A DNA stretch of 64,000 bases from the NCBI GenBank assembly GCA_035691205.1, contig DASSJM010000032.1, positions 15,698 to 79,697 of the forward strand. Direction: 5' to 3'. Source of the DNA: Actinomycetota bacterium. Its GTDB lineage: Bacteria > Actinomycetota > UBA4738 > HRBIN12. A program made the translations under genes and the position numbers. This document shows, piece after piece, positions 2,121 through 63,500 of this stretch; within the stretch, counting starts at the first letter, position 1; each line of letters starts with the position of its first letter. A model generated the notes under the pieces. The model ran no database searches. It saw nothing but the letters and a program-made list of their open reading frames with translations, and was not told the origin of the DNA.

Positions 2121-2774
2121 TTAGCCCACCCGCCGAGCGGACCCCCGCAGGCTGGATGGCATCGCCCGGGCCAGCGCCGAGGGGTCCTCGACGATCCGGG
2201 TCTTGCCCTCGTTGGCGCAGAGACCGATGTCCGCGAGGGCGTCGCGGAGCACGTCCAGGCCGTGCGCCACCGACGCAGGGCCCTCGCCTCCGATCACGAA
2301 GTCGTCGACCCATCGCAGGTGCGCGACCCCTTCGGCCTCGAGCGCCCGGTCCGCATGCGCCAGCACGGCGTTCGCGAAGACGGCCGAGGGGTCGGGTCCG
2401 ACCGGCAACCCCCGGACCCCCTCCCGAGCCACGGAGGCGAGGAACCTCTCGACGGCCGGTCCCTGCGGCGCCTCGATCCGCTCGAGGGCGGCGCGGGCGA
2501 GGTGCGGTCCGATCGACGCGTAACAGGTCGCCACGTCGGCGATCGCCACGGCGTCGTGCGCGGACGCGAACGCGTCGAGCGCGCGGGCGAACAGCCGCCG
2601 CTCCAGCCGCCACGGGCGGAGCGTGAGCGCCGGCGGCTCCGGGCATGAGCGCCAGACCCTGTTCGCCATGACGCGGCCGCTCAGGGCCTCCTCGACCGCT
2701 GGGGCCGCGACCGCCGCGAGCCGAACGTACTCGAGCCGGACCGCCGGCGAGAGGACGGTGAGGGTGCGTCGCAC
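2121..2774 (-). CDS. compact reverse-transcriptase-like protein (RT motifs 1-7, no thumb/maturase domain)
   Basis: 217 aa. Ordered matches to RT motifs: LRPW..RLERRLFARAL (motif 1, RP...DRvvQ.al), SAHDAV + IADVATCYASI (motif 2, DIkkfFDsI), GLPVGPDPSAVFANAVLAHADRAL (motifs 3-4, GlPQG..SPllaNiyL..lD), LRWVDDFVIGGEG (motif 5, YxDDfv), LADIGLCANEGKTRIVE (motifs 6-7, lgL.ln.eKT.iv). Native high-GC codon usage. Very short for an RT. Confidence 0.5.
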   Translation of the reverse strand: MRRTLTVLSPAVRLEYVRLAAVAAPAVEEALSGRVMANRVWRSCPEPPALTLRPWRLERRLFARALDAFASAHDAVAIADVATCYASIGPHLARAALERIEAPQGPAVERFLASVAREGVRGLPVGPDPSAVFANAVLAHADRALEAEGVAHLRWVDDFVIGGEGPASVAHGLDVLRDALADIGLCANEGKTRIVEDPSALARAMPSSLRGSARRVG

Positions 2775-2834
2775 CCCATGGCGGCGAACGGAGACCAGGC
2801 GGACCGATGCGGACGCCGACGTCCCTACCGCGCA

Positions 2835-2860
2835 CCTCCTCCGGCCGGGCCCGGAGGAGG
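2835..2860. promoter_or_regulatory. perfect 10-bp inverted repeat (cctcctccgg-ccgggc-ccggaggagg) in the divergent RT-like/lrp intergenic region
   Basis: Read directly. The 6-nt loop ccgggc is itself GC-palindromic. Located 60 nt from the RT-like start and about 100 nt upstream of the lrp GTG. Candidate operator or 5'-UTR structure. Confidence 0.3.
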
Positions 2861-2961
2861 GTGAGCCGAGGCGTCCTTTGTACTCGAGCGGTGGCGAACG
2901 CGGAATCGGCCGTCAGGGTGGTTCGGACGCTCGGCCGGTCGGGCCGCCGTACGATACGCGG

Positions 2962-3405
2962 GTGGTGGACCAGCGCGATCTGGAGATCATCGCCGCCCTC
3001 CAGGAGGACGCCCGAGCGACCTATGCGGACATCGGCCGACGGGTCGGCCTCGCGGCGTCCTCGGTCCACGACCGGGTCCGAAAGCTCGAGCGCGCCGGGG
3101 TGATCCTCGGGTACCGGGCGATCGTCGACTCCGACGCCCTCGGGCTGCTCGTGACGGCGCTGGTCGCCGTGAGCCCGTTCGACCCCACCCAGCCCGACGA
3201 CCTGCCGGAACGGATCGTGGACCTCCCCGAGGTCGTGGACTGTCTGTCGGTGGCTGGGGAAGCCAACTACATCCTCAAGGTGAAGACCCGCACGACGGGC
3301 GACCTCGAATCCCTGATCCAGCGTCTGCGCGAGAAGGCGCAGGTCCATACACGCACGACGGTGGTGCTGTCGATCCCGTTCGAGGACCGCCCGCTCACCC
3401 CCTGA
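2962..3405 (+). CDS. Lrp/AsnC-family transcriptional regulator
   Basis: The C-terminal 147 aa of track ORF 2623..3405 read VVDQRDLEIIAALQEDARATYADIGRRVGLAASSVHDRVRKLERAGVILGYRAIVD..., an HTH_AsnC domain plus RAM/ACT-like domain. The upstream 113 codons of the track ORF are Arg/Pro-rich junk. GTG at 2962 (or 2965) gives a canonical-length Lrp. Confidence 0.8.
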   Translation: MVDQRDLEIIAALQEDARATYADIGRRVGLAASSVHDRVRKLERAGVILGYRAIVDSDALGLLVTALVAVSPFDPTQPDDLPERIVDLPEVVDCLSVAGEANYILKVKTRTTGDLESLIQRLREKAQVHTRTTVVLSIPFEDRPLTP

Positions 3406-18733: not shown

Positions 18734-20092
18734 TCACATGTGGGCGATCAGCTGCTCCACACGTTCGTCGACGCTCCGGAAGGGATCCTTGCACAGGACC
18801 GTCCGCTGGGCCTGGTCGTTGAGCTTCAGGTGGACCCAGTCCACGGTGTAGTCGCGCCGCTTCTGCTTCGCCATCCGGATGAAGTCGCCGCGCAGCTTGG
18901 CGCGCGTGGTCTGTGGGGGCTCGCGCATCGCGACCTGGATCTCGCGCTCCGTCACGGCGCGCTCCATCATCCCGGCACGCTCGAGCACGTGGTACAGACC
19001 GCGGGTCCGGTTGACGTCGTGGTACGCGAGGTCGAGGAGCGCGACGCGCGGATGCGACAGCGGAAGCTGATGCTTCGCACGATACCGCTCGATCAGCGCC
19101 TGCTTGGCGACCCAGTCCACCTTCCGGACGAGCCGCTCGGGCTCCTGCAGGATGAGCGCATCGAGCGCGTCGCGCCACTCCTCGAGCAGCTCCTTGCTCT
19201 GCGGGTCCGCCCCGCGGCGCTCGAGGAACCGCTCGGTGCGCTCGTAGTACTCCTCCTGGATCTCGATCGCGGACAGCTCCCGACCGTTGGCGAGCCGGAC
19301 CTTCTTGCGGCACGTGACGTCGTGGCTGATCTCGCGGATCGCGCGGATCGGGTTCTCGAGAGAGAGGTCCCGCATCACGGTGTTGGCCTCCACCATGCGC
19401 AGGACCAGATCGGTCACCCCGACCTTCAGCCAGGTGGTGAACTCCGACATGTTCGAGTCGCCGACGATCACGTGCAGTCGCCGGAACCGCTCGGCGTCGG
19501 CGTGCGGCTCGTCGCGGGTGTTGATGATGGGGCGCGAGCGGGTCGTCGCGCTCGAGACGCCCTCCCAGATGTGCTCCGCTCGCTGGGCGATGCAGAAGAC
19601 GGCTCCCCGCGGGCCGTGCAGGACCTTCCCGGCCCCGCACCAGATCTGGCGCGTCACGAAGAAGGGGATCAACAGGTCCGCCATGCGGGCGAACTCGCCC
19701 TGCCGGGCGACCAGGTAGTTCTCGTGGCATCCGTAGGAGTTCCCCGCGGAGTCCGTGTTGTTCTTGAAGAGGTAGACCTGTCCGCTGATGCCCTCCTCGT
19801 GCAACCGGACCTCGGCCGCGGCGAGCAGCGCCTCCAGGATCCGCTCCCCCGCCTTGTCGTGTGCCACCAGGTCCGCGATCGCATCGCACTCGGGTGTGGC
19901 GTACTCGGGATGCGAGCCCACGTCGAGGTACAGGCGGGCCCCGTTCTCGAGGAAGACGTTCGAGGAACGGCCCCAGTGGACGACGCGGCGGAACAGGTAG
20001 CGGGCGACCTCATCCGGCGACAGACGGCGCTGCCCCCGGAACGTGCACGTCACCCCGTACTCGTTCTCCAGGCCGAAGATGCGTCGATCCAC
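18734..20092 (-). CDS. pafA: Pup--protein ligase PafA
   Basis: 452 aa. [16 protein letters not shown]... carboxylate-amine ligase fold; collinear with dop downstream. Classical position after prcA. Confidence 0.9.
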
Positions 20093-20150: not shown

Positions 20151-20837
20151 TCAGCCGGTCAGCATCCCGGCGACCTCGTCCTCGGGCAGTCGCCGGAACT
20201 TGCGCCGGGCGGTCCGGGTCCGGTCGAGCACACCCGCCTCCAGAGCCTCCGCATCGATCTCGCGACCCTCCGCGGTCGACAGGGCCTTGGCGGCCTCGCG
20301 GACGGCCGTCGACAGGTCCCAGCCCGGCCGATAGGCGGCCTTCACGGCCTCGGTGAGCTCCTCCGCGTGGCCGCCGATCGCGACGTGGTCGTGCTCGTCG
20401 GTCACCGTGCCGTCGAAGAGCACGTGGTAGATCTCGTCGCGGCCGCCGTCCTCGGCGACCTCGGCGACCAGGACCTCCACCTCGTAGGGCTTCATCTGCT
20501 GCGTGAAGATGGTCGAGAGGGCCTGCGAGTACGCGTTGGCCAGGTCGCGGGCCCGGACGTCTTCCCGTCCGTACGAGTACCCCCGGAGGTCGGCCAGGCG
20601 GACGCCGCTGATGCGCAGGTCCTCGAACTCGCTGTACTTGCCGACGCCGGCGAACACGATCCGGTCGTAGATCTCGCTGATCTTGTGCAGGGTGGCGCTG
20701 GGGTTCTCCGCGATGAACAAGATGCCGTCCGCGTACTCCAGTCCGATCACGGACTTGCCGCGAGCGATGCCCTTGTGGGCGAACTCCGAGCGGTCCTTCA
20801 TCAGCTGCTCGGGCGGCACGTAGGGCATGAAGCTCAT
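20151..20837 (-). CDS. prcA: 20S proteasome alpha subunit
   Basis: 228 aa, [45 protein letters not shown]... 4-nt overlap with prcB. Confidence 0.9.
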
Positions 20838-21622
20838 GCGGACCGCTCCTGCAGCACGGCCTCGACGGCCGCGGCGACGTCGGCCTCGGGCACCTCCTCG
20901 GCACCCTCCGCGGAGACGACGACGATGGTGGGGAAGATCTTTCGGATCGCGTCCGGTCCGCTCGTGGCCGTGTCGTCCTCGGACGCGTCGATGAGTGCCT
21001 CCACGGCCACCCGGATCGCCGTGGGACGATCCAACCCCGGCCGCCAGCGCTTCTTGAGCGAGTTCTTCGCCGGGAGCCCGCCCGACCCGGTCGTCTGGTA
21101 GTCGTCCTCCTCCCAGCGGCCGCCGGTAGCGTCGTAGTAGAAGATCCGGCCCTCGCCGCGTCGCTCGTCGAACCCGCCGAACAGCGGTACCACCACCAGC
21201 CCCTGCATCGCCGCGGGCAGGTTGCCTCGGATCATCTGCGCCAGGCGGTTCGCCTTGCCCTCCAACGAGAGCCGATCACCGGTGATCTTCTCGTAGTGCT
21301 CGAGCTCGAGCTGGAACAGCTTGACGATCTCACCGGCCTGGCCGGCCGCGCCCGCGATGGCGATCACGGAGCGGTCGTCGGCCGCGAACACCTTGCGGAT
21401 CTTGGCATCGGCCACCAGGTTGCCCGACGTCGCGCGCCGGTCCCCGGCCATCACGACGCCCTCGGTGAACTTCAACCCCAGGACGGTCGTTCCGTGCGGC
21501 AGGCGCAGCTCGCTCGCCGCGGTGACGAGGTCCGGCAGGGCCTCGGGCCGTGCCTGCCGGACGAGGTCGAAGAAGCTGGGGTTCGCGCCGATCACACCGC
21601 CTGGCGGCGAGGGCTCGGTCAC
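20834..21622 (-). CDS. prcB: 20S proteasome beta subunit (with propeptide)
   Basis: 262 aa. Propeptide then catalytic Thr at ...LRLPHG|TTVLGLKF, GDRRATSG motif. 4-nt overlap with pup stop. Confidence 0.9.
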   Translation of the reverse strand: MTEPSPPGGVIGANPSFFDLVRQARPEALPDLVTAASELRLPHGTTVLGLKFTEGVVMAGDRRATSGNLVADAKIRKVFAADDRSVIAIAGAAGQAGEIVKLFQLELEHYEKITGDRLSLEGKANRLAQMIRGNLPAAMQGLVVVPLFGGFDERRGEGRIFYYDATGGRWEEDDYQTTGSGGLPAKNSLKKRWRPGLDRPTAIRVAVEALIDASEDDTATSGPDAIRKIFPTIVVVSAEGAEEVPEADVAAAVEAVLQERSA

Positions 21623-21816
21623 TCGCCGCCCTTCTGGACGTAGGACTTCACGAACTCCTCGGCGTTCTCCTCGAGCACCGAGTCGATCTCGTCCAGGATG
21701 TCGTCCATCTCCTCCTTGAGCTTCTCGCCCTTGGAGGTGGCGGCGACCTGTCCGGCATCCTCGCCGGCGCCTCCGGACCGCTTCTGCGTCTTCTTCCGTT
21801 CCTGTTCCTGGGGCAC
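21619..21816 (-). CDS. pup: prokaryotic ubiquitin-like protein Pup (PupE, C-terminal ...GGE)
   Basis: 65 codons from GTG 21816 (AAGGAG 8 nt upstream). VPQEQERKKTQKRSGG...KLKEEMDDILDEIDSVLEENAEEFVKSYVQKGGE. The track ORF is extended upstream to 144 aa. Confidence 0.85.
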   Translation of the reverse strand: MPQEQERKKTQKRSGGAGEDAGQVAATSKGEKLKEEMDDILDEIDSVLEENAEEFVKSYVQKGGE

Positions 21817-21866
21817 GACGATCGCTCCTTGCAGCCTGGTGGAAGCGATTCTACCCGCCGGTCCTG

Positions 21867-23351
21867 CTAGGACCGGAGCAGGTCGACGAGCGCCGCCGCG
21901 TCCTCGGCTCGGGCCAGGAGGTCCTCCACCTGGGCCCGGGTTCCGCGCAGCGGTTCGCGCATCGGCACCCGCTGGAGCGCCTCCGCCCCGGTGTCGAAGA
22001 TGATCGAGTCCCACGATGCCGCCGCGATCGCCTCCGGGAAGCGATCGATGCACCGGCCGCGGAAGTAGGCCCGCGTGTCCTCGGGTGGCTCCATCATCGC
22101 GCGCTCGATCTCGTCGTCGGTCACGAGCCGTTCCACCTTGCCCGTCGCCGCCAGGCGCTGGTAGAGGCCACGGTCGCGACGGACGTCGTGGTACTGGAGG
22201 TCGATCGCACGAAGCTTGTGGTCGGCCCAGTCCAGCCCGTCGCGTTCGCGGTAGGCCTCGAGCAGGCGGTACTTCGCCACCCAGTCCAGCTCACGGTGGA
22301 GCTGCATCGGGTCGTCTTCTAGCGCCGTGAGCACGCCCTCCCATCGCTCCAAGACCTCGACGTTGGCTGCGGTCGTCTCCACGGCCTCGACGTACTTCCT
22401 GGCGCGCTCCAGGTACTCCCACTGGATCTGGACGGCCGTGAGCTTGCGACCGTCGGCCATCGGGAGCTGCGCCGTGCACGTGAGATCCCGCGAGACCTCG
22501 TGCAACGCGGGTACCGGCGACGCCAACGCGAGGTCCGGGACCTCGTCGTCCTCGATCAGCTTGAGCACGAGCGCGGTGGTCCCCAGCTTCAGGAAGGTCG
22601 CCATCTCGCAGAGGTTGGCGTCCCCGACGATCACATGGAGCCTGCGGTACCTCTCGGGGTCGGCGTGCGGCTCGTCACGCGTGTTCACGATGGGGCGCTT
22701 CAACGTCGTCTCGAGGCCGACCTCCGCCTCGAAGAAGTCGGCCCGCTGGGTGACCTGGTAGCGGTCCCTCGACCGCTCATCCCAGGTTGCCTCGGCACCG
22801 AGCTTGCCCGCCCCGGTGAACACCTGGCGGCTCACGAAGAACGGCATGATCCCGGTCACGAGGCTCGCGAAGGGGACCGCGCGGTCGACGAGGTAGTTCT
22901 CGTGCGTACCGTACGAGTTGCCCTTGCCGTCGCTGTTGTTCTTGTAGACGGCCAGGCGTTGGCCGCCGGGCATGGAGCGCTCGACCTCCAGGAGGGATCG
23001 CTCGAGGATCCGCTCCCCCGCCTTGTCATGGATCACCAACTCGCGGGGGCTGGCGCACTCGGGCGTCGAGTACTCGGGGTGGGCGTGGTCCACGTAGTAG
23101 CGGGCGCCGTTGGGCAGGATCACGTTGGCGAGCCCGAGGTCCTCCTCGGAGGGCTCCCGCAGCTGCACGGGCTCGAACCCGCGGGCGTCGCGGAGCGGCG
23201 ACTCCTGCTCGTAGTCCCAGCGGATCCGGCGGAGGGTCCCCGCGTACGTGCTGATGAGCATCGAGGAGGACAGGACCGGGTTGAACTCGGGTGAGCCGAT
23301 CGCCGAGATGCCGTACTCGGTCTCGGTACCGATGACCTTGGGGATGGCCAT
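21867..23351 (-). CDS. dop: Pup deamidase/depupylase Dop
   Basis: 494 aa, MAIPKVIGTETEYGISAIG... PafA paralog with the Dop-specific insertion. Confidence 0.9.
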   Translation of the reverse strand: MAIPKVIGTETEYGISAIGSPEFNPVLSSSMLISTYAGTLRRIRWDYEQESPLRDARGFEPVQLREPSEEDLGLANVILPNGARYYVDHAHPEYSTPECASPRELVIHDKAGERILERSLLEVERSMPGGQRLAVYKNNSDGKGNSYGTHENYLVDRAVPFASLVTGIMPFFVSRQVFTGAGKLGAEATWDERSRDRYQVTQRADFFEAEVGLETTLKRPIVNTRDEPHADPERYRRLHVIVGDANLCEMATFLKLGTTALVLKLIEDDEVPDLALASPVPALHEVSRDLTCTAQLPMADGRKLTAVQIQWEYLERARKYVEAVETTAANVEVLERWEGVLTALEDDPMQLHRELDWVAKYRLLEAYRERDGLDWADHKLRAIDLQYHDVRRDRGLYQRLAATGKVERLVTDDEIERAMMEPPEDTRAYFRGRCIDRFPEAIAAASWDSIIFDTGAEALQRVPMREPLRGTRAQVEDLLARAEDAAALVDLLRS

Positions 23352-23360
23352 CAGGGCACC

Positions 23361-25142
23361 CTACAGGTACTGCCCCGCGCTGACCCGCTCGACCTGTCGA
23401 CCCTCGCCGTCCCCGTCGCCGAGCAGGGTGCGGACGTAGACGATCCGCTCGCCCTTCTTGCCCGAGATGCGCGCCCAGTCGTCGGGGTTGGTGGTGTTGG
23501 GCAGGTCCTCGTTCTCCTTGAACTCGTCCTTGATCGCGTGCGCCAGGTCCTCGATCTTGATCCCCTTCTCCCCCGTGGACAGGAAGCGCTTGATCGCCTC
23601 CTTCTTCGCGCGACGCACGATGTTCTCGATCATCGCCCCGGAGTTGAAGTCCTTGAAGTAGAGGACCTCCTTGTCGCCGCTGGCGTAGGTCACCTCGAGG
23701 AACCGATTCTCGTCGGTCTCCGCGTACATCCGGTCGACCGTCTGCTGGATCATCCGCGTCGTCGTCGCCTTCACGTCACCGCCCGTCCGACCCAGGTCCT
23801 CGGGGTGGATCGGGACACGCGCGTTCAGGTACTTGCCCATGATGTCGGCGGCCTGGGCGGCATCGGGACGCTCGATCTTGATCTTCACGTCCAGCCGCCC
23901 GGGACGCAGGATCGCGGGGTCGATCAGGTCCTCCCGGTTGGAGGCGCCGATCACGATGACGTTCTTCAGCGTCTCGACGCCGTCGAGCTCGGAGAGCAGC
24001 TGCGGGACGATCGTCGACTCCACGTCGCTCGAGATCCCCGTCCCACGCGTGCGGAAGATCGAGTCCATCTCGTCGAAGAAGACGATGACCGGCAGTCCCT
24101 CCTCCGAGCGTTCCTTGGCGCGCTGGAAGATCTGCCGGATCTGGCGCTCGGTCTCGCCGACGTACTTGTTCAGGAGCTCGGGGCCCTTGATGTTCAGGAA
24201 GTACGAGTGCGCGTCCTGACGCCCGGTCCGCTCCCGGACCTTGTCGGCCAGCGACTTGGCGACGGCCTTGGCGATCAGCGTCTTGCCGCATCCAGGGGGT
24301 CCGTACAGGAGGACACCCTTGGGCGCCTCGAGCTGGTGCTCCTGGAACAGCTCCGCATACAGGAACGGGAGCTCGACGGCATCGCGGATCGCCTCGATCT
24401 GCCCCTCGAGCCCCCCGATGTCCTCGTACGAGACGTCCGGGATCTCCTCGAGGACGAGCTCCTCGACCTCCTCCTTCGGCAGCTTCTCGAGCGCGATGTT
24501 GGACCGCGGGTCGATCATCAGCGGGTCGCCGGCACGGATCTGCTCGGTCAGCAGCCCCGCCGAGAGCGTTGCCACGAGCTCCTCGTCGCCGCGGCCCACG
24601 ACCACCACGCGATCGTCGCCCAGGCGGTCCTTGACCTTCATGACCTCGCCGGCGCGGTCCGGATCGAGGACCTCGACCACGTTCAGGGCCTCGTTCAAGA
24701 TCACCTCGACGCCCTTGCGCAGGCGGTCGGGGTCCAGGTCCGGGGAGATGTTCACGCGCATCTTGCGTCCCGCGGTGAACACGTCCGCGGATCCGTCCTC
24801 GTTGGTCGCCAGGTAGACGCCGAAGGACGCAGGGGGCTGGCTGAGCTTCTCGACCTCGTCGCGGAGCCCCTCGATCCGCTCCTTCTCGGCCTGAAGCGTG
24901 CTCGCGAGCTTCTCGTTCTGGGTGACGGCACGGGCCAGGTCCGATCGCGCCTGAAGCAGCTTCTCCTCGAGGAGCTTCACCTGGCGCGGGGCGTTGGTGA
25001 GCCGACGCCGCAGCAGCGAGATCTCGTCCTCGAGGAAGCGCACCTGCGTCGAGAGCTCGTGGAGCTGCTTCTCGTAGCGCTCCTGCTGCTCGCGTGGATC
25101 GGGCTCGGGCAACTCCGTCACCTCCCGCGTGGCGGGAATCAT
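23361..25142 (-). CDS. arc: proteasome-associated AAA+ ATPase ARC/Mpa
   Basis: 593 aa. N-terminal coiled coil, OB domains, Walker [17 protein letters not shown]-terminal ...GQYL proteasome-docking motif. Confidence 0.9.
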
Positions 25143-25190: not shown

Positions 25191-26009
25191 TTATGGATAC
25201 GGTACTCGGGGGTCCGGACGTTCTAGGTGATGCCCGATCTTCCGTGCAACGGTCAGGAACCCCGTGTGGGCGACCATGCGGTGATCGGGCCGGACGCTTC
25301 GGGCGGTCACGTGCCACGAGCGGTGGAGCACCTCGAAGGTCTCGAGGTGGTCGTAGCCCGTCTCCTCGAGCTCGAGGACGAACTGCTGCACCTGAACGGT
25401 CGTGGGCAGGTACCCGCAGACGATCCCCCCGTCCACCAGGATCCGGGAGACCGCCGGCAGCGCGGCCCAGGGTTCGGGGAGGTCCAGGATCGTCCGGTCG
25501 AAGGTCTCCCCGGTCTCCGCCGCCAGGGAGACGTCGCCCTCACGAAGCTCGAGCCAGTCCGGCAGCTTCCCGAAGAACGCCTCGATGTTGCGGGCGGCCT
25601 TCGACTGGAACTCCTGGCGCAGGTCGTAGGAAACGACCCGTCCGCCCGCCCCTGTGGCCCTGCAGAGAGCGAGGGTGAGGGACCCCGATCCGGTCCCTGC
25701 CTCCAGGACCCGGGCACCGGGGAAGACGTCCGCCTCCACCAGGATCGCCCCGATGTCCTTGGGGTACACGACCTGGGCGCCCCGGGGCATCTTCAAGATG
25801 TAGTCCGCCATCCGCGGGCGGAAGGCGCGGAACGCCATCCCCGTGGCCGAGTGGACCTGCGTCCCCTCGGGCGAGCCGATCACGAGGTCGTGCGGGAGCC
25901 CGCCCCCATGCGAGTGCCAGGTCTGCCCGGACTCCAGGGTCACGAAGTACCTGCGGCCGCGCTGATCGACGAGCAGGATCCGCTCCCCCGGCTCGAAGGG
26001 TCCGCTCAC
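25191..26009 (-). CDS. trmI: tRNA (adenine58-N1)-methyltransferase TrmI
   Basis: 272 aa. N-terminal beta-domain, then SAM-binding VLEAGTGSGSLTLAL and DLPEPW motifs. Orthologous position to Rv2118c next to arc. ATGA overlap with the upstream ttuBA stop. Confidence 0.85.
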   Translation of the reverse strand: MSGPFEPGERILLVDQRGRRYFVTLESGQTWHSHGGGLPHDLVIGSPEGTQVHSATGMAFRAFRPRMADYILKMPRGAQVVYPKDIGAILVEADVFPGARVLEAGTGSGSLTLALCRATGAGGRVVSYDLRQEFQSKAARNIEAFFGKLPDWLELREGDVSLAAETGETFDRTILDLPEPWAALPAVSRILVDGGIVCGYLPTTVQVQQFVLELEETGYDHLETFEVLHRSWHVTARSVRPDHRMVAHTGFLTVARKIGHHLERPDPRVPYP

Positions 26010-27223
26010 GACGGGCGCCCCGCCGTGTAGATCTCCGCCGGCAGGACCTCGTCCGAGGTCTCGGTGGCGATCTCACGCTCGTCGATCGCGTCCCGCTCGA
26101 TCCGCGGTTCCCCGAGGCGCTCGCCAAGGATCTGGGCCTGCGCCCGGCAGAAGGCGCAGAACCGGCCCGTCGTGGGCTGTTCGCACCGCTCGCACGGCAC
26201 GAGCGTCGCCTCGTCCTGCGAGGCGAACAGCGGTGCCGCCCGATCCAGGTACGAGAGGAAGAACTGGGCCTTGGTCCCGGGCGAGGTCGCCTCGAGCTGG
26301 TTCATCGCCTCCTTGTATCGGAGCTGGGTGTTCCCACCGACGAGCGGGCACTCCTCGACCACGTAGTCGATCCCGCGGAGGAACGCGTACGCGGCGGTCT
26401 CGAGCTCGGAGAGCCGATACAGCGGCTTCACCTTGCGGGCCAGTCCCTCCTCGGCGGGCAGGACCGGGAACTGTCGTGCGATGTAGTCCGTCTGCCAGCG
26501 GAGCGTGTTGCCGAGGAGCGTCGCCGCCTCGTCGTCCAGGTTATGGCCGGTGGCGACGACGTCGTACCCGTGGTCGCGTGCGGCCTTGTTGAAGATGTAG
26601 CGCTTGGACAGGCCGCACACGGCGCAGGTCGATCGGGATCCCTTCCGGCCGGCCGTCGGGACGTCGAACCCGTACTCGCGCTCGAGGTCGACCGCGATCA
26701 GGCGCGCCCCTCGCTCGCGCGCGAACGTCCGGGCGACCTCGCCGGAGCGGGTCGAGTACTCCCCGATCCCTAGGCCGAGGTACAGACCGTCGGCGCGGTA
26801 CCCGAGCTCGAGCAGCACGTCCCACAGGGCGAGCGAGTCCTTCCCCCCGGAGACGGCCACGAGGATCCGGTCCTCCGCGCCGAACATGTCGTAGTGCTCG
26901 ACGGCGCGCTTCACCTGCTCGCGTACGTGATGGACGAAGCAGTCGCGGCAGAAGGCCGCGTTGTGCCGCCGGACCTCGACCACGGCGGCCGCTCCGCACC
27001 GGCGGCACTTCATCCGATTGCCGCCGGTGCTCCCACCGCTGATCACGGGCCGGATCTCGATCAGGTCGTCGGCGCCCACACGGTCCTCCCGGGTGAGGAG
27101 CTCGCGCTCGCGGATCACGAGGACCGTGTCCGCGTTGATGCCGAGCTCGCGGAGGACGTCGTGCACCTTCCGGCCGCCAGGGACGTCCATCTCGCGATCG
27201 GGGTTGCGGAGCCGCACCTTCAT
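26006..27223 (-). CDS. ttuA: fusion of ThiS/TtuB-like sulfur-carrier domain (ends ...ISGG) with TtuA-type tRNA 2-thiouridine synthetase (PP-loop ATPase)
   Basis: 405 aa. Residues 1-64 MKVRLRNPDREMDVPGGRKVHDVLRELGINADTVLVIRERELLTREDRVGADDLIEIRPVISGG form a ThiS/MoaD beta-grasp ending Gly-Gly. Linker STGGNR. From the internal ATG at 27013: MKCRRCGAAAVVEVRRHNAAFCRDCF (Zn finger), VAVSGGKDS (PP-loop), CAVCGLSKRY, ATGHNLDDEA, C-terminal CERCEQPTTGRFCAFCR. Nearly collinear with Thermus TtuA. No stop between the two parts in this assembly. Confidence 0.75.
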   Translation of the reverse strand: MKVRLRNPDREMDVPGGRKVHDVLRELGINADTVLVIRERELLTREDRVGADDLIEIRPVISGGSTGGNRMKCRRCGAAAVVEVRRHNAAFCRDCFVHHVREQVKRAVEHYDMFGAEDRILVAVSGGKDSLALWDVLLELGYRADGLYLGLGIGEYSTRSGEVARTFARERGARLIAVDLEREYGFDVPTAGRKGSRSTCAVCGLSKRYIFNKAARDHGYDVVATGHNLDDEAATLLGNTLRWQTDYIARQFPVLPAEEGLARKVKPLYRLSELETAAYAFLRGIDYVVEECPLVGGNTQLRYKEAMNQLEATSPGTKAQFFLSYLDRAAPLFASQDEATLVPCERCEQPTTGRFCAFCRAQAQILGERLGEPRIERDAIDEREIATETSDEVLPAEIYTAGRPS

Positions 27224-27256: not shown

Positions 27257-28339
27257 TCAGGTGGTCGCGACCGGGTTCACCCCGAGCTCGACCGTCAGCA
27301 CCTCCTGTGAGCCGTCGGGGTGCACCAACCCGACCTCGACCCGGTCCCCCGGCTCGTGATCCCGGATCAGCTCGCCGAGCTGCTCCGACCCCGTGACGGG
27401 CTCCCCGTCGAACACCACGATGACGTCTCCGACCTGCACGCCCGCCGTCTCCGCGGGGCCGTCGCTCACGAGGCCCACGATGAGCGCCCCCTCGCCCACC
27501 GGCGGATCGAACTGGAACTGCACCTGCGGGTCGGAGACATCGCCCGAGCTGATCCCCATGAACGCGACCGGGGCCGAGGGATCCGCAGCGGCGCCGAAGA
27601 TGATCTCCCGGGCCGAGTCGATCTGGATCGCGAACCCGATGTTCTCGGCGCTCCCGGCGCCCGCGGTGTTGATCCCGACGACCTCACCGGCCAGGTTCAC
27701 GAGCGGGCCGCCCGAGTTCCCCGGATTGATCGCGGCGTCCGTCTGGATCACCTCCGCGTACACGCGCCGCTGCTGATCGCACTCGAGGCAGTTCTCGTCG
27801 GGTACCACGATCCTGCGCGCGAGGGAGGAGACGATGCCGGTCGTGACCGACGGTCCCCCCTCCAGGCCGAGGGCGTACCCGATGGCCACCACCTGCTGCC
27901 CGAGCCGCAGGTCCTCCGAGCGCCCGAGCGGAACGGTCGGCAGGTCCGATGCCTCGACGTCGAGCACTGCGAGGTCGGCCTCGATGTCGCCCCCGATCAC
28001 CCGAGCGTCGTACCGCACCGGCTCCTCGTCGGAGGTGACGACGGTCACCTCACTCGCCCCCTCGACGACGTGGAAGTTCGTCACGATGATGCCGTCCGAG
28101 CGAACGATGAAGCCGGTTCCCTCGCCCTCCCCCTGATCGGAGAGGGCGACCACGTTGACCACGGCCGGAAGGACGCTCTCGACCACCTCGACCACCGCGT
28201 CGGGACCCGAGGCGAACGCGGCCTCGCTCGAGGGGAACTCCGCCCGGGGCTCGGCCGTATCGGTCTGGGTGGACCCGACCGTGCAGGCCGCGCCCGCGAG
28301 GCCGAGCACCACGATCAAGGGGATGAGGGTTCGTCGCAT
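27257..28339 (-). CDS. HtrA/DegP-family trypsin-like serine protease with PDZ domain (lipoprotein-type signal)
   Basis: The track ORF reaches 28393. The internal start at 28339 gives MRRTLIPLIVVLGLAGAAC (signal peptide with lipobox-like AAC). Catalytic triad context ...TNFHVV..., D, GNSGGPLVN. C-terminal PDZ (GALIVGLVSDGPAETAGVQVGDVIVVFDGE). Confidence 0.75.
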   Translation of the reverse strand: MRRTLIPLIVVLGLAGAACTVGSTQTDTAEPRAEFPSSEAAFASGPDAVVEVVESVLPAVVNVVALSDQGEGEGTGFIVRSDGIIVTNFHVVEGASEVTVVTSDEEPVRYDARVIGGDIEADLAVLDVEASDLPTVPLGRSEDLRLGQQVVAIGYALGLEGGPSVTTGIVSSLARRIVVPDENCLECDQQRRVYAEVIQTDAAINPGNSGGPLVNLAGEVVGINTAGAGSAENIGFAIQIDSAREIIFGAAADPSAPVAFMGISSGDVSDPQVQFQFDPPVGEGALIVGLVSDGPAETAGVQVGDVIVVFDGEPVTGSEQLGELIRDHEPGDRVEVGLVHPDGSQEVLTVELGVNPVATT

Positions 28340-28427
28340 GTCGGTATCTCCAGTCTGTCGGTCCAGCCGCCATTCGACACGGGCAGGTACCACGTTCGGG
28401 CCTGGGACTGAGAGTTGACTGAGAGTC

Positions 28428-29372
28428 TCAGTCGGAGGGCGGTGCGGGCGGGGCAGGGCGGGGCAGGAGGCCGCCCTCCTCCAGGACGGTGGGGATCGCC
28501 TCCTCGTTGTTGATCGTCATGAGGTGCACGCCTGCGACCCCGGGGATCTGCCGGACCAGGTCGAGGACCTCCAGCGCGACCTCGATGCCGGCTCGCCGCT
28601 GTTCCGGGGCCGATCCGGCCTCCATCCGCTCGAGGAGCGACTCCGGCACGTCGATGCCGGGGACGTGGTCGCGGAGGTACCGCGTGGCGAGGCCGGAGCG
28701 GGGGATGAACACGCCCGCGATCACCCACACGTGGTCGAGCAGGCCGAGCTCGCCGCAGCGAGCCATGAACAGACGCATCTTCTCGACGTTGAAGCAGATC
28801 TGGGTCTGGACGAACTCCGCCCCGGCCTCGATCTTCTTGCCCAGTCGCATCGGCCGGAACTCCAGCGGAGGCGCGAAGGGATTCTCGACGGCGCCGACGA
28901 GGAACGTGGGGGGTCGGGTGAGGGGGCGGCCCGACAGGTAGCAGCCCTCGTCGCGCATGATCCGAGCGATGCGCAGCAGGTGGAGCGAGTCGATGTCGAA
29001 GATCGGCTTGGCCTCCGGGTGATCGCCGGCGGTCACGTCGTCGCCGGTCATGCACAGGATGTTGGGGATGCCCAGGGCCCCCGCTCCGAGCAGATCCGCT
29101 TGCAAGGCAAGGCGGTTCCGGTCGCGGCAGGTTAGCTGCATCACCGGCTCCACGCCGGCATCGGCAAGGAGGTGCGCGGCGGCGAGGGCCGCGAGGTGTG
29201 GATGGGCCGCCGAGTTGTCCGTGCAGTTGACGGCGTCCACGCGTCCTCGCAGGTGCTGCGCCAACTCGGTCACCGAGGCCGGATCGGCCGAGTCGGTCGT
29301 CTCGAGCTCCGCGGTCACGACGAACTCGCCGGCGAGCAGGAGCCGGTGGAGCTCGCTTCGCGCCTCGGTCAT
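28428..29372 (-). CDS. metF: MetF-type 5,10-methylenetetrahydrofolate reductase catalytic subunit
   Basis: The C-terminal 314 aa of track ORF 28428..29678 start at ATG 29372 (MTEARSELHRLLLAGEFVVTAELETTDSADP...), a TIM-barrel MTHFR. ATGA overlap with metV stop. The upstream 102 codons of the track ORF are spurious. Confidence 0.75.
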   Translation of the reverse strand: MTEARSELHRLLLAGEFVVTAELETTDSADPASVTELAQHLRGRVDAVNCTDNSAAHPHLAALAAAHLLADAGVEPVMQLTCRDRNRLALQADLLGAGALGIPNILCMTGDDVTAGDHPEAKPIFDIDSLHLLRIARIMRDEGCYLSGRPLTRPPTFLVGAVENPFAPPLEFRPMRLGKKIEAGAEFVQTQICFNVEKMRLFMARCGELGLLDHVWVIAGVFIPRSGLATRYLRDHVPGIDVPESLLERMEAGSAPEQRRAGIEVALEVLDLVRQIPGVAGVHLMTINNEEAIPTVLEEGGLLPRPAPPAPPSD

Positions 29373-29797
29373 CCGTGCATCTTCCCCGATGCTGCCCAAC
29401 CCGAGGGCACGTGCCGGTCGCGACGGGTGAGCAGGTTCTCCCACGAGGACGTCTCCTGCAGGCGCCAGTCCGTCGGGCGCTGGACGTGTCCCATGTGGTC
29501 GCGCCAGGCGGGGAGCTTGCGGGATCCTTCCCACGCCTGGACCCACACGCACTTCATCTCCGGCTCGACCTCGCAGCTCCCGTCCTGCAGGACCCCCCCG
29601 CACGGGCCGTTGCGCAGGTTCTTTGGGCATCGCATCGGACAGGACAGCCCGGTGGAGTGCAGGATGCACTGACCGCACATCCGGCAGTCCCAGAAAGTCT
29701 CCTTCGTGGACCGCTCCACGAGCAGGAGCGCCCTTCGGAACCCTCCCGGGCTCGCGGCGGTGGGTTGGGGTCTGCGGTCGAGTCGGCTTCGCGGCAC
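29369..29797 (-). CDS. metV: MetV-like small zinc-finger subunit (MTHFR_C domain)
   Basis: 142 aa with Cys cluster FWDCRMCGQCILHSTGLSCPMRCPKNLRNGPCGG, characteristic of the MTHFR_C small partner encoded upstream of acetogen/actinobacterial MetF. Confidence 0.65.
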   Translation of the reverse strand: MPRSRLDRRPQPTAASPGGFRRALLLVERSTKETFWDCRMCGQCILHSTGLSCPMRCPKNLRNGPCGGVLQDGSCEVEPEMKCVWVQAWEGSRKLPAWRDHMGHVQRPTDWRLQETSSWENLLTRRDRHVPSGWAASGKMHG

Positions 29798-59422: not shown

Positions 59423-60529
59423 GTGCTATCGCACAAGACCTATCTGATCAGCGCGTCGCTCGGCCCCATCTCGACGCGATCACGCGCGAACGTGGACGCG
59501 TACCTGGACGCGTGGGCGACCAAGGGCGCCCCGGACCACGTCTGGTTCGAGGACATCTTCCCCGCCATGGGACGTCTCAAGTCCACGTTCGCCATCCTCG
59601 CGGGGTGCGACGCCGACGAGGTCGCGATCACGACGAACATCTCGATCGCGATCTCGACGATCGCATCCGCGCTCGACCTCGGAGAGCGGAACAAGGTCGT
59701 GATGTCCGAGCTCGACTTCCCCACCGACGGCAACGTCTGGCTCGCACACGGCCGGCGAGGCGTCGAGATCGAGTGGCTCCGCTCCCCAGACGGCCTGACG
59801 ATCCCGCTCGAGGAGTACGACCGCGCGATCGACGAGCGCACGGCGGTCGTGATGGTGAACCGCGTGCTCTACCGCTCGAGCGCGATCGTGGACGCGAAGG
59901 AGGTCTGCGGCATCGCGCGCGAGCGCGGGGCCCTCTCGTTCCTGGACGACTACCACGGGATCGGGATCCTCCCGCTCGACCTGCACGATCTCGGGTGCGA
60001 CCTCTACGCCGCCGGCGTGCTGAAGTGGCTGTGCGGCGGTCCGGGGCTCGCCTTCCTGTACGTGCGGCGAGACCTGATCCCGACGCTCGAGCCGATGGTG
60101 ACCGGATGGTTCGGCACCGATGATCCCTTCTCCTTCGACACCGAGCACCTCGCGTTCCACCCGACGGCTCGCCGCTTCGAGCACGGGACCCCGCCCGCGC
60201 CCGTGGTCTTCATCGCGCAGGGCGGTCTCGACGTCGTTGCCGAGGTCACGCCCGAACGGATCCGCGCACGCCAGAGCGAGCTGACGGACCACGCGATCGC
60301 CCGCGCGGACGAGATGGGTCTGCCGGTCCGGACACCCCGGGATCGTCGAGCGCGTGGCGGCGTGGTGAACGTGGGCGTCGGGCCCCACGCCGACAGGATC
60401 TGTCATGCGCTGCTCGAACGCGACGTGTGCACGGACTTCCGAGGGGACGGGCTCCGCATCAGCCCGCACTTCTTCAACACCGAGCACGAGATCGACCGGT
60501 GCTTCGCGGAGCTCCGCGGGCTGCTCTGA
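59423..60529 (+). CDS. class-V aminotransferase-fold PLP-dependent enzyme (cysteine desulfurase/kynureninase-like)
   Basis: 368 aa. ...YLISASLGPIS... start typical of the family, mid-domain ...SFLDDYHGIGILPLD...GVLKWLCGGPGLAF (PLP-Lys region), C-terminal small domain. Confidence 0.7.
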   Translation: MLSHKTYLISASLGPISTRSRANVDAYLDAWATKGAPDHVWFEDIFPAMGRLKSTFAILAGCDADEVAITTNISIAISTIASALDLGERNKVVMSELDFPTDGNVWLAHGRRGVEIEWLRSPDGLTIPLEEYDRAIDERTAVVMVNRVLYRSSAIVDAKEVCGIARERGALSFLDDYHGIGILPLDLHDLGCDLYAAGVLKWLCGGPGLAFLYVRRDLIPTLEPMVTGWFGTDDPFSFDTEHLAFHPTARRFEHGTPPAPVVFIAQGGLDVVAEVTPERIRARQSELTDHAIARADEMGLPVRTPRDRRARGGVVNVGVGPHADRICHALLERDVCTDFRGDGLRISPHFFNTEHEIDRCFAELRGLL

Positions 60530-60537
60530 GCAGTCGC

Positions 60538-63500
60538 TCAGACCGCGTTCGGCCGCCAGTCGGGCTCGGACCCGGACCCGGACCCGATGAGGTAGGCATC
60601 GCTGCCGTCCGCCCGAACCAGGTACACGAGGCTCGGCGTGACACCTAACGCGTTCGACATCAACATCCATCGCCCATCGGGATGCAGGTCGAGGACGGGT
60701 CGATCGATGCCCTCGGGCAGTCGCCGCATGAACGGACGCTCGCCGGTGCCGTCCGGGAGCACCGATCGGATCCCGCCCTCGACGGCGAACAGGATCCGCT
60801 CGCCGTCGAGGGTCCATGACAACGCCGCCGCGGGCTCGTCCCGGATCCTCGCGAGGTTGCCGCCGTCCGCGTCGACGACGTAGATCCCCGGCACGTCCGA
60901 GAGGATCGTGAACGCGATCCGGTCGCCGTCGGGGGACCAGGCCGGGCTGAGGATCGACTCGTTCCGCCGTACCACGATCTCGGTCCGGCCCGTGCCGTCG
61001 GGGCTCATCACGACCAGGCGCGAGCTCCAGTCCGGCTGGGTCAGACCTTCGGCGACGAACGCGATCCTCGTCCCATCCGGCGACCAGGCCGGCGTGAGCT
61101 CATCGTCTCCAGTCGCCTCGCTGATCGGCGAGAGCTCGCTCCCGTCGGGGTTCATCGTGTAGAGGTCGTAGCCTCCGGGCGCCGCGCCGCTGAAGGCGAT
61201 CCGCGAACCGTCCGGGGACCAGTCCGGCCAGTCGTTGGGGCTCGTGAAGGGCGTGGACGTCGTCCCGACGATCCTCCCGCCCGCGTCCACGAGCTCGATC
61301 GACCCGCCCAGCTCGAGGGCGAACACGCCGGGCGGAGCCTTCGTCCACGGCTCGCCGCCGTCCATCTTCTGTGGACCCGCGCACCGCCCTCCGCTGGTCC
61401 GCTCGAAGGACACCCGATCGCCCTCCACCGACCACGCGTAGGTCGCCGGGCGGAGGTCGCCCCCTTCTCCGAGATCCTTCAGCCCGGCGCACCAGCCGGA
61501 CGTGGGAGAGAAGACGAGGAGGTTCGGCTTCCGGCGCAGGAGCGTCCCGGTCTCGTTCGAGTCGTTCGAGCCAGCTCCGATGATCGTGTCCCCATAGGAG
61601 GTCCCGTCGATGTGGAGGGCACACGTATGACCCGCGAACCCCGCGCATCCGTCCACCGGGACCACCAGGTAACTGCCGTCCGCCAACCGTGCACCGGCCC
61701 CGAGCCGTGGCGCGTCCTTGCTCGGGACCGCACCCTCGGTCGGGAGGACGGGTCCGGAGGATGTCACCCACCAGTCGTACAGGCTCAGGTCGCCGAGATC
61801 GTTGCGGACGGCGTGCGCATAGATCGATGCGTTGTCGTCGGTCCACTCGATGTGCGACTGATCGGGGGTTCCCCCGGAGCCGAAGAGGGCAGGCACCTCC
61901 AACCGATCGACCGTGTAGCAGAGGACCCGCCCCGCCGGATCACCTCCGAGCGTGTACGGCGTGACGGCCAGGGTGTCGGTCGCGCACTCGCCGTCGGGGG
62001 CCCGCATCACGTTCGCGTTGATCTGGAACGCCTCGTCCATCAGGTCGCGCGTGGGGAAGAGCTCGTAGAGGACCTCGACGTCATCGGTGCGACATGCGAG
62101 CGCGGCGATCTCGCCGCGGATCGGCTCGTCGCGATCGAGCGGCAGGCAGTCCGTCGCGACCTCCTCCGGGATGTAGGTCAGCAGCCGTTCCTCCTCGCCG
62201 GAGAGGGGCCGGTCGAGGGTGCGGAACGTCGGCTCCGGGGTGGGGCTGGGGATCGGTCCGGCCGACGGTGTCGCGGCGTCCCCGTCTGCGGGGGGCGTCT
62301 CCCCCCGGGTGACCGAGGAGACGACGATGCCGACGACGAGCGCGGCGACGACCGCGACCGCCGGGATCAGCCGGCGGAGCCGCGACCGCCCGCCCTCTGC
62401 GGACGGGGACGGACGTCCGAGGCCGAGCGCGCGAGCCGCCTCGTCCACCAAGGCACCGGCGGTCTGGTGTCGCGCCGACGGCTCCTTCGCCATGGCCTTC
62501 GTGACGACCGCGTCGATCTCCTTGGGCAGATCCGCGCGATTCGCGGTCACGGCGGGGGGCGGCTCCTGCAGGTGCGCGTACATCAGGCCGGCGTTGTTCT
62601 CGGCCCCGAACGGCGGGTGGCCGGTCAGGCACTCGTACAGCACGCACCCGAGCGAGTACACGTCCGTACGAGCGTCCGCCGAACCGCCCTTGAACTGCTC
62701 GGGGGCCGCGTAGTCGAGCGTGCCGACGAACTGCCCCGTCCCCGTGACGCCGGAATCGCTCGCCGCTCGCTTGGTGAGCCCGAAGTCCGACAGGTACACG
62801 TGCTCCTCCGCGTCCGAACCCCTCGGTCGCGAGATGAGCACGTTGCCCGGCTTCACGTCTCGGTGGACGAGGCCCTGCTCGTGCGCGGCATCGAGCGCCG
62901 CGGCCACCTGGCGGACGATCGCCAGCGCCCGTGCGGGCTCGAGCGCACCCTCCGCGCTCAGGAGCGCTCGGAGGTCCGTCCCCACGACGTAGCGCATCGC
63001 GATGTACAGGTCGTCCCCCGACGCCCCCGCCTCGAAGATCGGGATCACGTTCGGGTGATCCAGCGACGCCGCCAGACGAGACTCGCGGATGAATCGCTCG
63101 CGGAACCGCTCGTCCTCGGCGAGCTGCGGCGCCAGCAGCTTGAGCGCGACCTTCCGCTGGAGCCATGCGTGCTCGGCGAGGTAGACGACGCTCATCCCAC
63201 CGCGGCCGAGCGTGGACTCGATCCGGTACCCGGCGAACTCGGTCCCGGGCGGCAGGTCCATCCGGCTCGGGCGTACCGCGGGCTGGGGGCGCTCGGCCGA
63301 CCCGAGCGCGGGATCCTGGCGGAGGATCTGCTCGTGTAGGCCCTGCAGCTCGGGCGAGGGCTCCGTGCCGAGCTCGTCGGCGAGCACCTCGCGGGCACGC
63401 TGGTAGGTGGAGAGCGCCTCGGCCTGGCGGCCCGAGCGGAACAGGGCGAGCATCAGGCTCGCCCACATGCGCTCGCGGAGGGGGTACGCAGCCGTCAGCG

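Follow-up and report, generated by a model that had tools for sequence, protein, structure and literature searches.

The TtuB-TtuA reading frame

Here we describe a gene in a 64,000-nucleotide stretch of DNA (the window) from an Actinomycetota bacterium (assembly GCA_035691205.1, contig DASSJM010000032.1), which joins TtuB, a sulfur carrier of the ubiquitin-like kind, and the tRNA 2-thiolase TtuA in one polypeptide. The gene occupies positions 26006..27223 on the minus strand of the window, whose G+C content is 70%, as a single open reading frame (ORF) of 405 codons that begins with an ATG at 27223, has zero internal stops and ends with a TGA at 26006-26008. Codons 58-64 read RPVISGG, codons 65-70 read STGGNR, and codon 71 is a methionine (ATG at 27013-27011). 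The encoded protein is identical to NCBI HET7235576.1, whose record is named merely "ATP-binding protein". The comparisons below show that the ORF comprises a TtuB that is complete to its Gly-Gly, six linker residues and a TtuA that begins at its own Met1, and we propose that it functions in the 2-thiolation of U54 in the tRNA T-loop (m5U54 to m5s2U54).

The TtuB domain spans residues 1-64 (27032..27223, minus strand, as are all features of the gene) and ends in RPVISGG. Pfam ThiS (PF02597) matches residues 9-64 and reaches the last profile position (76/76), scoring 23.9 bits for residues 1-70 alone and 19.8 bits in the full protein, against a cut-off of 22.5. In a sequence search of the PDB, residues 3-64 align to residues 12-74 of Thermus thermophilus TtuB, which is the end of that chain (5ZTB_E, E 5e-12), with SAMP2 as a weaker match. 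An AlphaFold model of residues 1-70, built on an alignment of database proteins, has a mean predicted local distance difference test score (pLDDT) of 77.5 and a beta-grasp fold of bb-a-bbb order, becoming disordered from residue 63. The best PDB matches of this model in Foldseek are the TtuB chains of 5ZTB and 5GHA (TM 0.75-0.84, 44-48% identity), followed by ThiS, MoaD, SAMP, SUMO and ubiquitin.

The codons for Gly63-Gly64 (ggt ggg, 27032..27037) mark the predicted processing site and future carrier C-terminus. The two glycines align with the last two residues of 5ZTB_E and with the end of the Pfam and NCBIfam ThiS profiles, and they are invariant in three alignments of 16 fused, 40 mixed and 24 free sequences. 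They do not end the polypeptide, as the frame runs on for another 341 codons and the primary product lacks the free C-terminus typical of TtuB-type carriers. Such a C-terminus could arise only through proteolytic processing. The fused domain is under purifying selection and as constrained as the free form: its median ratio of nonsynonymous to synonymous substitution rates (dN/dS) is 0.21 in fused sequences, 0.28 in split sequences of the same clade and 0.38 in the fused Nitriliruptoria, compared with 0.31-0.47 for the neighbouring TtuA segment.

The TtuA half extends from residue 71 to residue 405. Its core, residues 71-362 (26138..27013), aligns without a gap to residues 1-292 of T. thermophilus TtuA (5GHA_A/5B4E_A, E 5e-94), placing Met71 on Met1. 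The NCBIfam TtuA model covers residues 71-361 (E 5e-79) with 265.4 bits, against 111 for NcsA and 77 for TtcA, and the PDB search likewise gives 318 bits to T. thermophilus TtuA as against 77 to NcsA (6SCY) and 44 to TilS.

The motifs of the enzyme are all in place. The N-terminal zinc finger (C73, C76, C92 and C95; 26939..27007), three of whose cysteines are invariant and the fourth nearly so, lies in a match to TtuA_LIM_N (PF22082, residues 72-97, E 1.5e-9). The PP-loop domain ATP_bind_3 (PF01171, residues 120-291, E 1.3e-8) contains an invariant SGGKDS at residues 125-130 (26834..26851), which aligns with the PP-motif of T. thermophilus TtuA. Two of the three [4Fe-4S] ligands, C200-x-x-C203 (26615..26626), align to T. 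thermophilus C130/C133 (PMC7025502, PMC3980101), and the third, C292 (26348..26350), aligns to C222 (PMC7025502). The C-terminal zinc finger (C344, C347, C356 and C359; 26147..26194) is nearly invariant and was assigned by alignment to the T. thermophilus enzyme, whose K137, a TtuB-conjugation site (PMC3980101), aligns with K207.

A preliminary description of this DNA had proposed the layout given above (405 codons, RPVISGG, STGGNR and an internal ATG at 27013), with a ThiS/MoaD/TtuB-type beta-grasp in residues 1-64 and a complete TtuA from the internal ATG. The layout agrees with our reading of the sequence; the first domain is borne out by Pfam, the PDB match, AlphaFold and Foldseek, and the second by the NCBIfam model, the gap-free T. 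thermophilus alignment and the catalytic and metal-binding residues. The conservation of the Gly-Gly in orthologs, which that description had singled out for checking, holds in all aligned fused and free homologs.

The C-terminal tail (residues 363-405; 26009..26137) carries, after a variable charged spacer, the motif E-V-[LM]-P-[AV]-E-[IL]-Y, here EVLPAEIY at residues 392-399 (26027-26050). The motif is conserved in the alignment of fused proteins and is clade-specific; within the close clade it is carried by fused and split forms alike. Matches in tblastn reach residue 399-405 in the close clade only; those at Acidimicrobiia loci stop at about residue 360, and the T. thermophilus TtuA match (residues 71-362 of the query) falls short of the motif. 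A docking peptide is one possibility.

The closest characterized system is TtuA/TtuB/TtuC of T. thermophilus (5GHA, 5ZTB, 5B4E). Both halves of the fusion are clear homologs of its components, with about 46-48% identity between Thermus TtuB and residues 3-64 from end to end, including the terminal ISGG, and with the PP-loop, the Fe-S cysteines, the zinc fingers and K137 retained in TtuA; a functional link to TrmI and m1A58 is common to both. The Thermus TtuB is, however, a free protein of about 65 residues that ends exactly at GG, whereas here the carrier is the N-terminal domain of TtuA, and K226 and K229 of Thermus TtuA are not conserved in the fusion. Thermus also has TtuC, whereas no TtuC-like E1 or JAMM gene was seen in the 64-kb window.

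Recurrence of the fusion and lability of its junction

The fusion recurs throughout the close relatives of the protein. Among the 120 best clusters at 90% identity, which come from assemblies in NCBI, JGI, ENA and Logan, about 117 are full-length fusions of 370-424 residues (91-100% query cover, 73-100% identical), and the contigs bearing them include sizes of 0.45-3.45 Mb. RPVISGG does not vary across 16 aligned fused proteins, while the linker that follows it (STGGNR in the window, 27014..27031) varies in sequence and ranges from 2 to 8 residues, differing by whole codons; its pLDDT is below 50 in both AlphaFold models, that of residues 1-70 and that of the full-length protein. The preliminary description had called for a check for a missed stop or frameshift. 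Because the in-frame fusion recurs in about 117 of 120 clusters from independent assemblies, with linkers that vary by whole codons, such an artefact is excluded, and the fusion is a real gene and no assembly error.

Many of these proteins are already tagged with ThiS and TtuA domains by database pipelines; the architecture is thus visible in public data yet apparently uninterpreted. The full-text literature searched, mostly without subscription papers, contains no description of a TtuB-TtuA fusion or of the pro-TtuB tails discussed below, in keeping with the preliminary description, whose author knew of no such fusion, with the caveat that absence from this literature is not proof.

To place the fusion among its relatives, we used a locus scan of one genome per GTDB species, which returned 80 loci, and read each junction in three frames; the locus is present in at least 559 GTDB species. 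At the 74 loci with a recognisable TtuB, 13 were fused in frame and 61 had a separate ttuB directly upstream of ttuA. The fused loci are those of the window's clade (L001-L004), L008, and seven loci of the class-level clade Nitriliruptoria (L014-L017, L020-L022). The separate form spans Acidimicrobiia, Ilumatobacteraceae, Microthrixaceae, Ferrithrix, Rokubacteria and Nitrospirota, and it includes L005-L007 and L009-L013, which are 70-79% identical to the query. Two further candidates for fusion, L026 and L050, were rejected as the junction DNA has in-frame stops after tails of 18 and 12 residues, making them separate. The junction script found no TtuB-like GG motif at eight further loci, four of which, in Chloroflexota (L037, L068, L071, L077), have ...SGG with a stop immediately after it, just upstream of ttuA.

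The separate ttuB genes lie mostly one frame off, with a TGA that overlaps the ttuA start as ATGA or GTGA; the junction of L011, for example, reads ...TCG GGG GGC GCA CGA TGA in the ttuB frame and ATG AAG TGT in that of ttuA. In the window the ATG of Met71 (27011..27013) is the ancestral ttuA start, and ATG-A holds a latent TGA of the kind that ends ttuB in split relatives. Unfused TtuAs begin at this position, and in a library of 50%-identity representatives the nearest relatives are mostly plain TtuAs beginning at the query's Met71. The fused gene arose from the overlapping ttuB/ttuA arrangement of most relatives: a one-nucleotide insertion between GG and ATG fuses the genes, and a one-nucleotide deletion in the fused gene regenerates the TGA from ATG-A.

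Three junction types can be distinguished: the window's clade has GG-x(1-6)-(NR)-M-K/R-C, L008 has GG-AGSIT-K-C, and Nitriliruptoria have GG-AGPxR-C, which lacks a Met. When the TtuA part is used for a neighbour-joining tree, the fused Nitriliruptoria group together as one clade, and within the window's clade the unfused L005 is nested among fused sequences and the fused L008 is sister to the unfused L006. The fusion has arisen at least three times and is one state of a labile, reversible ttuB/ttuA junction.

Some representatives of the family at 50% identity (P0121, P0130, P0197, P0202) are visible frameshift chimeras in which ttuA reads through into trmI, the kind of product that indel errors typically leave in high-G+C assemblies. 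Single fused or split records such as L005 need caution, since frameshifted representatives of this kind occur in the family.

Free TtuBs of the lineage rarely end at their Gly-Gly. Only 8 of the 61 separate proteins stop at GG, and the other 53 carry 1-18 extra residues, most commonly two (AR, AT, AA, AG and so on). The 120 closest free TtuBs, found in a protein search with residues 1-64, are 75-86% identical and typically 66-67 residues long, and all 28 of the close free TtuBs inspected have variable tails after RPVISGG, such as AA, GR, GGR, AGRTS and ARAATLGRRS. The linker STGGNR of the fused protein corresponds in position to these tails. The tails imply that, throughout Acidimicrobiia and relatives, the C-terminus of the carrier has to be processed.

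Neighbouring genes

Directly downstream of the fusion, trmI (25191..26009, minus strand) encodes a tRNA m1A58 methyltransferase with Pfam GCD14 and TrmI-like_N domains, and its GTG start overlaps the fusion stop as GTGA, so that the two genes are translationally coupled. It is followed on the same strand by the Pup-proteasome genes mpa (23361-25142), which starts 48 nt past trmI, dop (21867-23351), pup (~21619-21819, between dop and prcB), prcB (20834-21622), prcA (20151-20837) and pafA (18734-20092), named from the Pfam annotation of the syntenic locus L001 (P0023) together with the window ORFs. The Pup protein ends in GGE and not GGQ, so no Dop deamidation would be needed before ligation.

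Across the 81 loci compared, ttuB/ttuA is directly followed by trmI in 70, and beyond it mpa is present in 58 and dop in 37, whatever the fusion status; non-actinobacterial loci lack the ttuA > trmI > mpa > dop order. Since the order is conserved in Actinomycetota whether the genes are fused or not, the nearness of the Pup-proteasome genes is no special property of the fusion; it is a lineage-wide actinobacterial synteny carried by trmI. These genes are neighbours of the thiolation system and do not belong to it, and the fusion protein, which resembles none of Pup, Dop/PafA, Mpa and PrcAB, is no component of pupylation or proteasomal degradation. The probable functional partner of the fusion gene is TrmI, and the linkage to trmI at 70 of 81 loci likewise favours U54 as the tRNA target.

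The preliminary description had placed two ubiquitin-like systems in one transcription unit with the fusion gene at the head of the Pup-proteasome array. The Pup genes are co-oriented downstream, and no terminator-like site occurs on the minus strand from the fusion gene through the Pup-proteasome genes, but the two systems are not linked through the fusion and the synteny is general. That the gene heads the array is not demonstrable, as htrA, an MTHFR gene and DUF5981 precede it just upstream on the same strand. The first of these encodes an HtrA-like protease with an export signal and lies 33 nt upstream of the fusion gene. The longest MTHFR ORF (28428-29678, minus strand, 416 residues) and the upstream DUF5981 ORF (29369-29797, minus strand) share about 300 nt; as the ortholog in L001 has 313 residues, translation of MTHFR probably begins at an internal start.

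Two other ORFs of the window lie further from the gene. The first (2121-2774, minus strand, 217 residues) matches part of RVT_1 (positions 68-192 of the 205 in the profile, E 4.7e-10). It shares some of its length with a gene for an AsnC-type regulator on the opposite strand (2623-3405) and may be the remnant of a group II intron or retron reverse transcriptase. The second (60538-63987, minus strand) encodes a 1149-residue protein combining a winged-helix Trans_reg_C domain, BTAD, a Ser/Thr protein kinase and PD40 beta-propeller repeats.

Proposed release of the carrier

Based on these observations, we propose, with a probability of about 0.6, that the ORF encodes a TtuB-TtuA polyprotein that is cut after Gly64 by a GG-specific endopeptidase and serves in U54 2-thiolation. 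The primary product would be inactive as a carrier, its Gly64 carboxylate being held in a peptide bond. An endopeptidase encoded elsewhere, most likely of the JAMM/MPN+ type, would cut after Gly64 and, in sister lineages, would also remove the tails from free pro-TtuB. Cleavage would yield equimolar amounts of TtuB-GG and of a TtuA with a 6-residue N-terminal stub. TtuB-GG would then be adenylated and thiocarboxylated by an E1-like MoeZ/TtuC enzyme together with a cysteine desulfurase, and would deliver its sulfur to the TtuA Fe-S cluster in the manner of Thermus, while co-translated TrmI would make m1A58 and so promote thiolation of U54.

The preliminary description had considered either release by cleavage after GG or action in cis. 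We favour cleavage because the free-standing TtuBs of the lineage are almost always tailed after GG and would need trimming anyway. As neither the fused product nor the tailed TtuBs offer a free Gly64 carboxylate, the fusion can be regarded as a pro-TtuB that has TtuA as its tail. In Thermus (PMC3980101, PMC7138817, PMC7025502), the thiocarboxylated carrier TtuB-COSH is desulfurized by the [4Fe-4S] cluster of TtuA, a chemistry that requires this carboxylate to be free. The place of TrmI in the scheme is consistent with reports that m1A58 is needed for efficient U54 thiolation (PMC7912444) and pairs with m5s2U54 (PMC7025502).

The nearest precedent is MoaX of Mycobacterium tuberculosis, a MoaD-MoaE fusion that needs cleavage at Gly82|Ser83 for activity, by a protease not identified, and whose correct processing occurs in M. 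smegmatis and fails in E. coli (PMC4326299). It belongs to the same phylum, and in both proteins an N-terminal beta-grasp carrier with GG precedes an enzyme that uses its thiocarboxylate, with Ser in the P1' position (GG|S). The two differ in that MoaX acts in the molybdenum cofactor pathway with a partner of another fold, and cleavage is demonstrated in MoaX while it is predicted for TtuB-TtuA. The architecture of the fusion matches the MoaX class of cleaved carrier-enzyme polyproteins.

Enzymatic precedent for freeing a prokaryotic ubiquitin-like protein (Ubl) with a C-terminal Gly comes from JAMM enzymes. Deinococcus DR0402 and Haloferax HvJAMM1 cut linear MoaD-MoaE and SAMP1-MoaE fusions (PMC8832034), and a Thermus JAMM mutant shows aberrant TtuB conjugates and a thiouridine loss of about 50% (PMC3980101). 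Those systems differ from ours, for which no JAMM gene was found in the window or within ~6 kb of ttuB/ttuA at the 81 loci. Ubl pro-forms with C-terminal extensions include eukaryotic ubiquitin, the ubiquitin-ribosomal protein fusions and Pseudomonas QbsE, which is trimmed by QbsD. They resemble the present case in that an endopeptidase exposes the GG and that fusion to a linked partner gives 1:1 stoichiometry. They differ in lineage and partner, and the tails here are very short and variable by-products of overlapping stop and start codons.

In archaea, ThiS-family genes adjoin those of TtcA/Ncs6-family PP-loop ATPases (Makarova and Koonin 2010, PMC2948915, in the part of that survey drawn on here), a gene adjacency as opposed to the in-frame fusion described here. 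The fusions listed in that part of the survey are MoaD-MoaE, Ubl-Cgi121, Ubl-E1 and Jab-E1, and it mentions no Ubl-PP-loop fusion. TtuB-TtuA adds a third class to the carrier-enzyme fusions known from MoaD-MoaE and similar cases; its components and chemistry are known, and it is an extension of known systems, not a new kind of system.

Two gene products of the window were considered for a role in this scheme. The HtrA-like protease (27257-28393) was rejected as the processing enzyme, as it begins with what looks like an export or lipoprotein signal (MRRTLIPLIVVLGLAGAAC) and is present only in the close clade (14 of 81 loci), split-gene members included. A kynureninase-like Aminotran_5 ORF (59423-60529) is unsupported as a sulfur-donating desulfurase, as it carries a KYNU_C domain.

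Several observations weigh against our proposal. We infer cleavage from the tails and the precedents, and no peptidase candidate lies at the locus, in the window or at the 81 related loci. Pfam scans of ~48 ORFs of the 64-kb window found no JAB/MPN or ThiF-type E1 domain. A search for the JAMM motif H[ST]Hx7SxxD, run as a regular expression on six-frame translations of the window and of ~6 kb around ttuB/ttuA at the 81 loci, found no genuine case, all 14 matches being spurious off-frame ORFs. The full-length AlphaFold model, built with the 16 fused sequences, has a pLDDT of 56.5, which is too poor to judge docking of TtuB on TtuA. The TtuA score of 265.4 bits is below the NCBIfam equivalog cut-off of 450 (NF049949, Pyrococcus-type); that model is built on the archaeal type, and the bacterial Thermus enzyme is the closer relative. 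Met71 is kept by nearly all members of the window's clade, which also allows for TtuA made by internal initiation. TtuA may use a bisulfide at the cluster rather than TtuB-COSH, so that the carrier would not be strictly required (PMC7025502). Finally, the habitats of many relatives are thought to be mesophilic, and m5s2U54 would not be expected there.

One alternative, which we consider unlikely, is that internal initiation at Met71 supplies most of the functional TtuA and that the full-length chain is no more than a TtuB precursor or a tolerated by-product. Of the 15 fused sequences from the window's clade in our alignment, 14 have Met71, which aligns to TtuA Met1, and L004 has a GGGAG 7 nt upstream of the junction ATG. 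In the window, however, the nearest GGGAG lies 16 nt upstream of the ATG at 27013, and because the start at 27223 also has no clear Shine-Dalgarno sequence, motifs of this kind decide nothing here. At L008 and at each of the seven fused Nitriliruptoria loci the junction has no Met at all, leaving the fused chain as their only source of TtuA, and even with internal initiation the C-terminus of TtuB would still need to be freed.

It is also conceivable, if quite unlikely, that the fusion stays uncleaved and the TtuB domain is retained as a structural, regulatory or docking module, with sulfur coming from a cluster bisulfide or another carrier. Such a module might fill the TtuB-binding groove, mimic the Thermus TtuB~TtuA conjugate or recruit an E1. 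The lack of a peptidase or E1 gene in the window or the 81 loci would fit this idea, as would the proposal that the free iron of the cluster binds TtuB-COSH or bisulfide (PMC7025502) and the fact that lysines of Thermus TtuA carry conjugated TtuB, one of them, K137, being kept here as K207. A permanently attached domain is harder to reconcile with the invariance of RPVISGG under equal constraint in fused and free forms. The alternation of fused and split genes among close relatives implies equivalent function, and split forms give a free carrier. A linker of two residues, as in P0097, would moreover leave little room for docking in cis, and MoaX, the closest precedent, is inactive unless cleaved.

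That a sequencing or assembly indel in a G+C-rich run merged two separate genes can be dismissed for practical purposes: a single nucleotide would be enough to fuse or split them, and some database representatives of the family are visibly frameshifted, but four independent sources give the same in-frame fusion for about 117 of the 120 nearest clusters, whose contigs include sizes of 0.45-3.45 Mb, the linkers vary by whole codons, and Nitriliruptoria, a class-level clade, are fused in seven of seven cases with the junction Met lost.

Returning to the cleaved polyprotein, a more far-reaching version of it would have TtuB always made as an inactive pro-form in this lineage, with a short tail or all of TtuA attached, and its release by the GG-endopeptidase acting as a regulated checkpoint that turns on T-loop thiolation, maybe coordinated with the Mpa/Dop/Pup-proteasome genes, for example through uncleaved Ubl-TtuA as a client of the proteasome or chaperone. 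We regard this as speculative and very improbable. If true, regulated release of TtuB would give bacteria a counterpart of ubiquitin-precursor processing whose target is a tRNA-modification enzyme.

The ttuB-ttuA-trmI T-loop module is widespread in environmental, probably mesophilic, Actinomycetota. We observed it in Ilumatobacter/Ilumatobacteraceae, in Microthrixaceae and in many soil metagenome-assembled genomes (L018, L027, L028, L052, L058, L063, L065, L072, L079 and others), and Ilumatobacter/Ilumatobacteraceae, Microthrixaceae and the soil lineages are known as mesophilic. As m5s2U54 has been described as a thermophile-specific modification (PMC7025502), either it occurs more widely than has been assumed, or the enzyme does something else in these organisms.

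TtuB, Urm1 and SAMP2 are regarded as molecular fossils that join sulfur carriers to ubiquitin-like modifiers (PMC3980101). In the lineage studied here, the carrier is routinely made as a precursor, with tails after GG, and has repeatedly been fused to its own client enzyme, the 4-nt overlap of stop and start making gene fusion or fission a one-nucleotide, reversible event. Our proposal predicts a dedicated GG-specific processing endopeptidase in Actinomycetota, where the activity that cleaves MoaX likewise lacks an assigned enzyme. The fusion, which would be converted from ~44 kDa to products of ~7 and ~37 kDa, would be a clean natural substrate for finding it.

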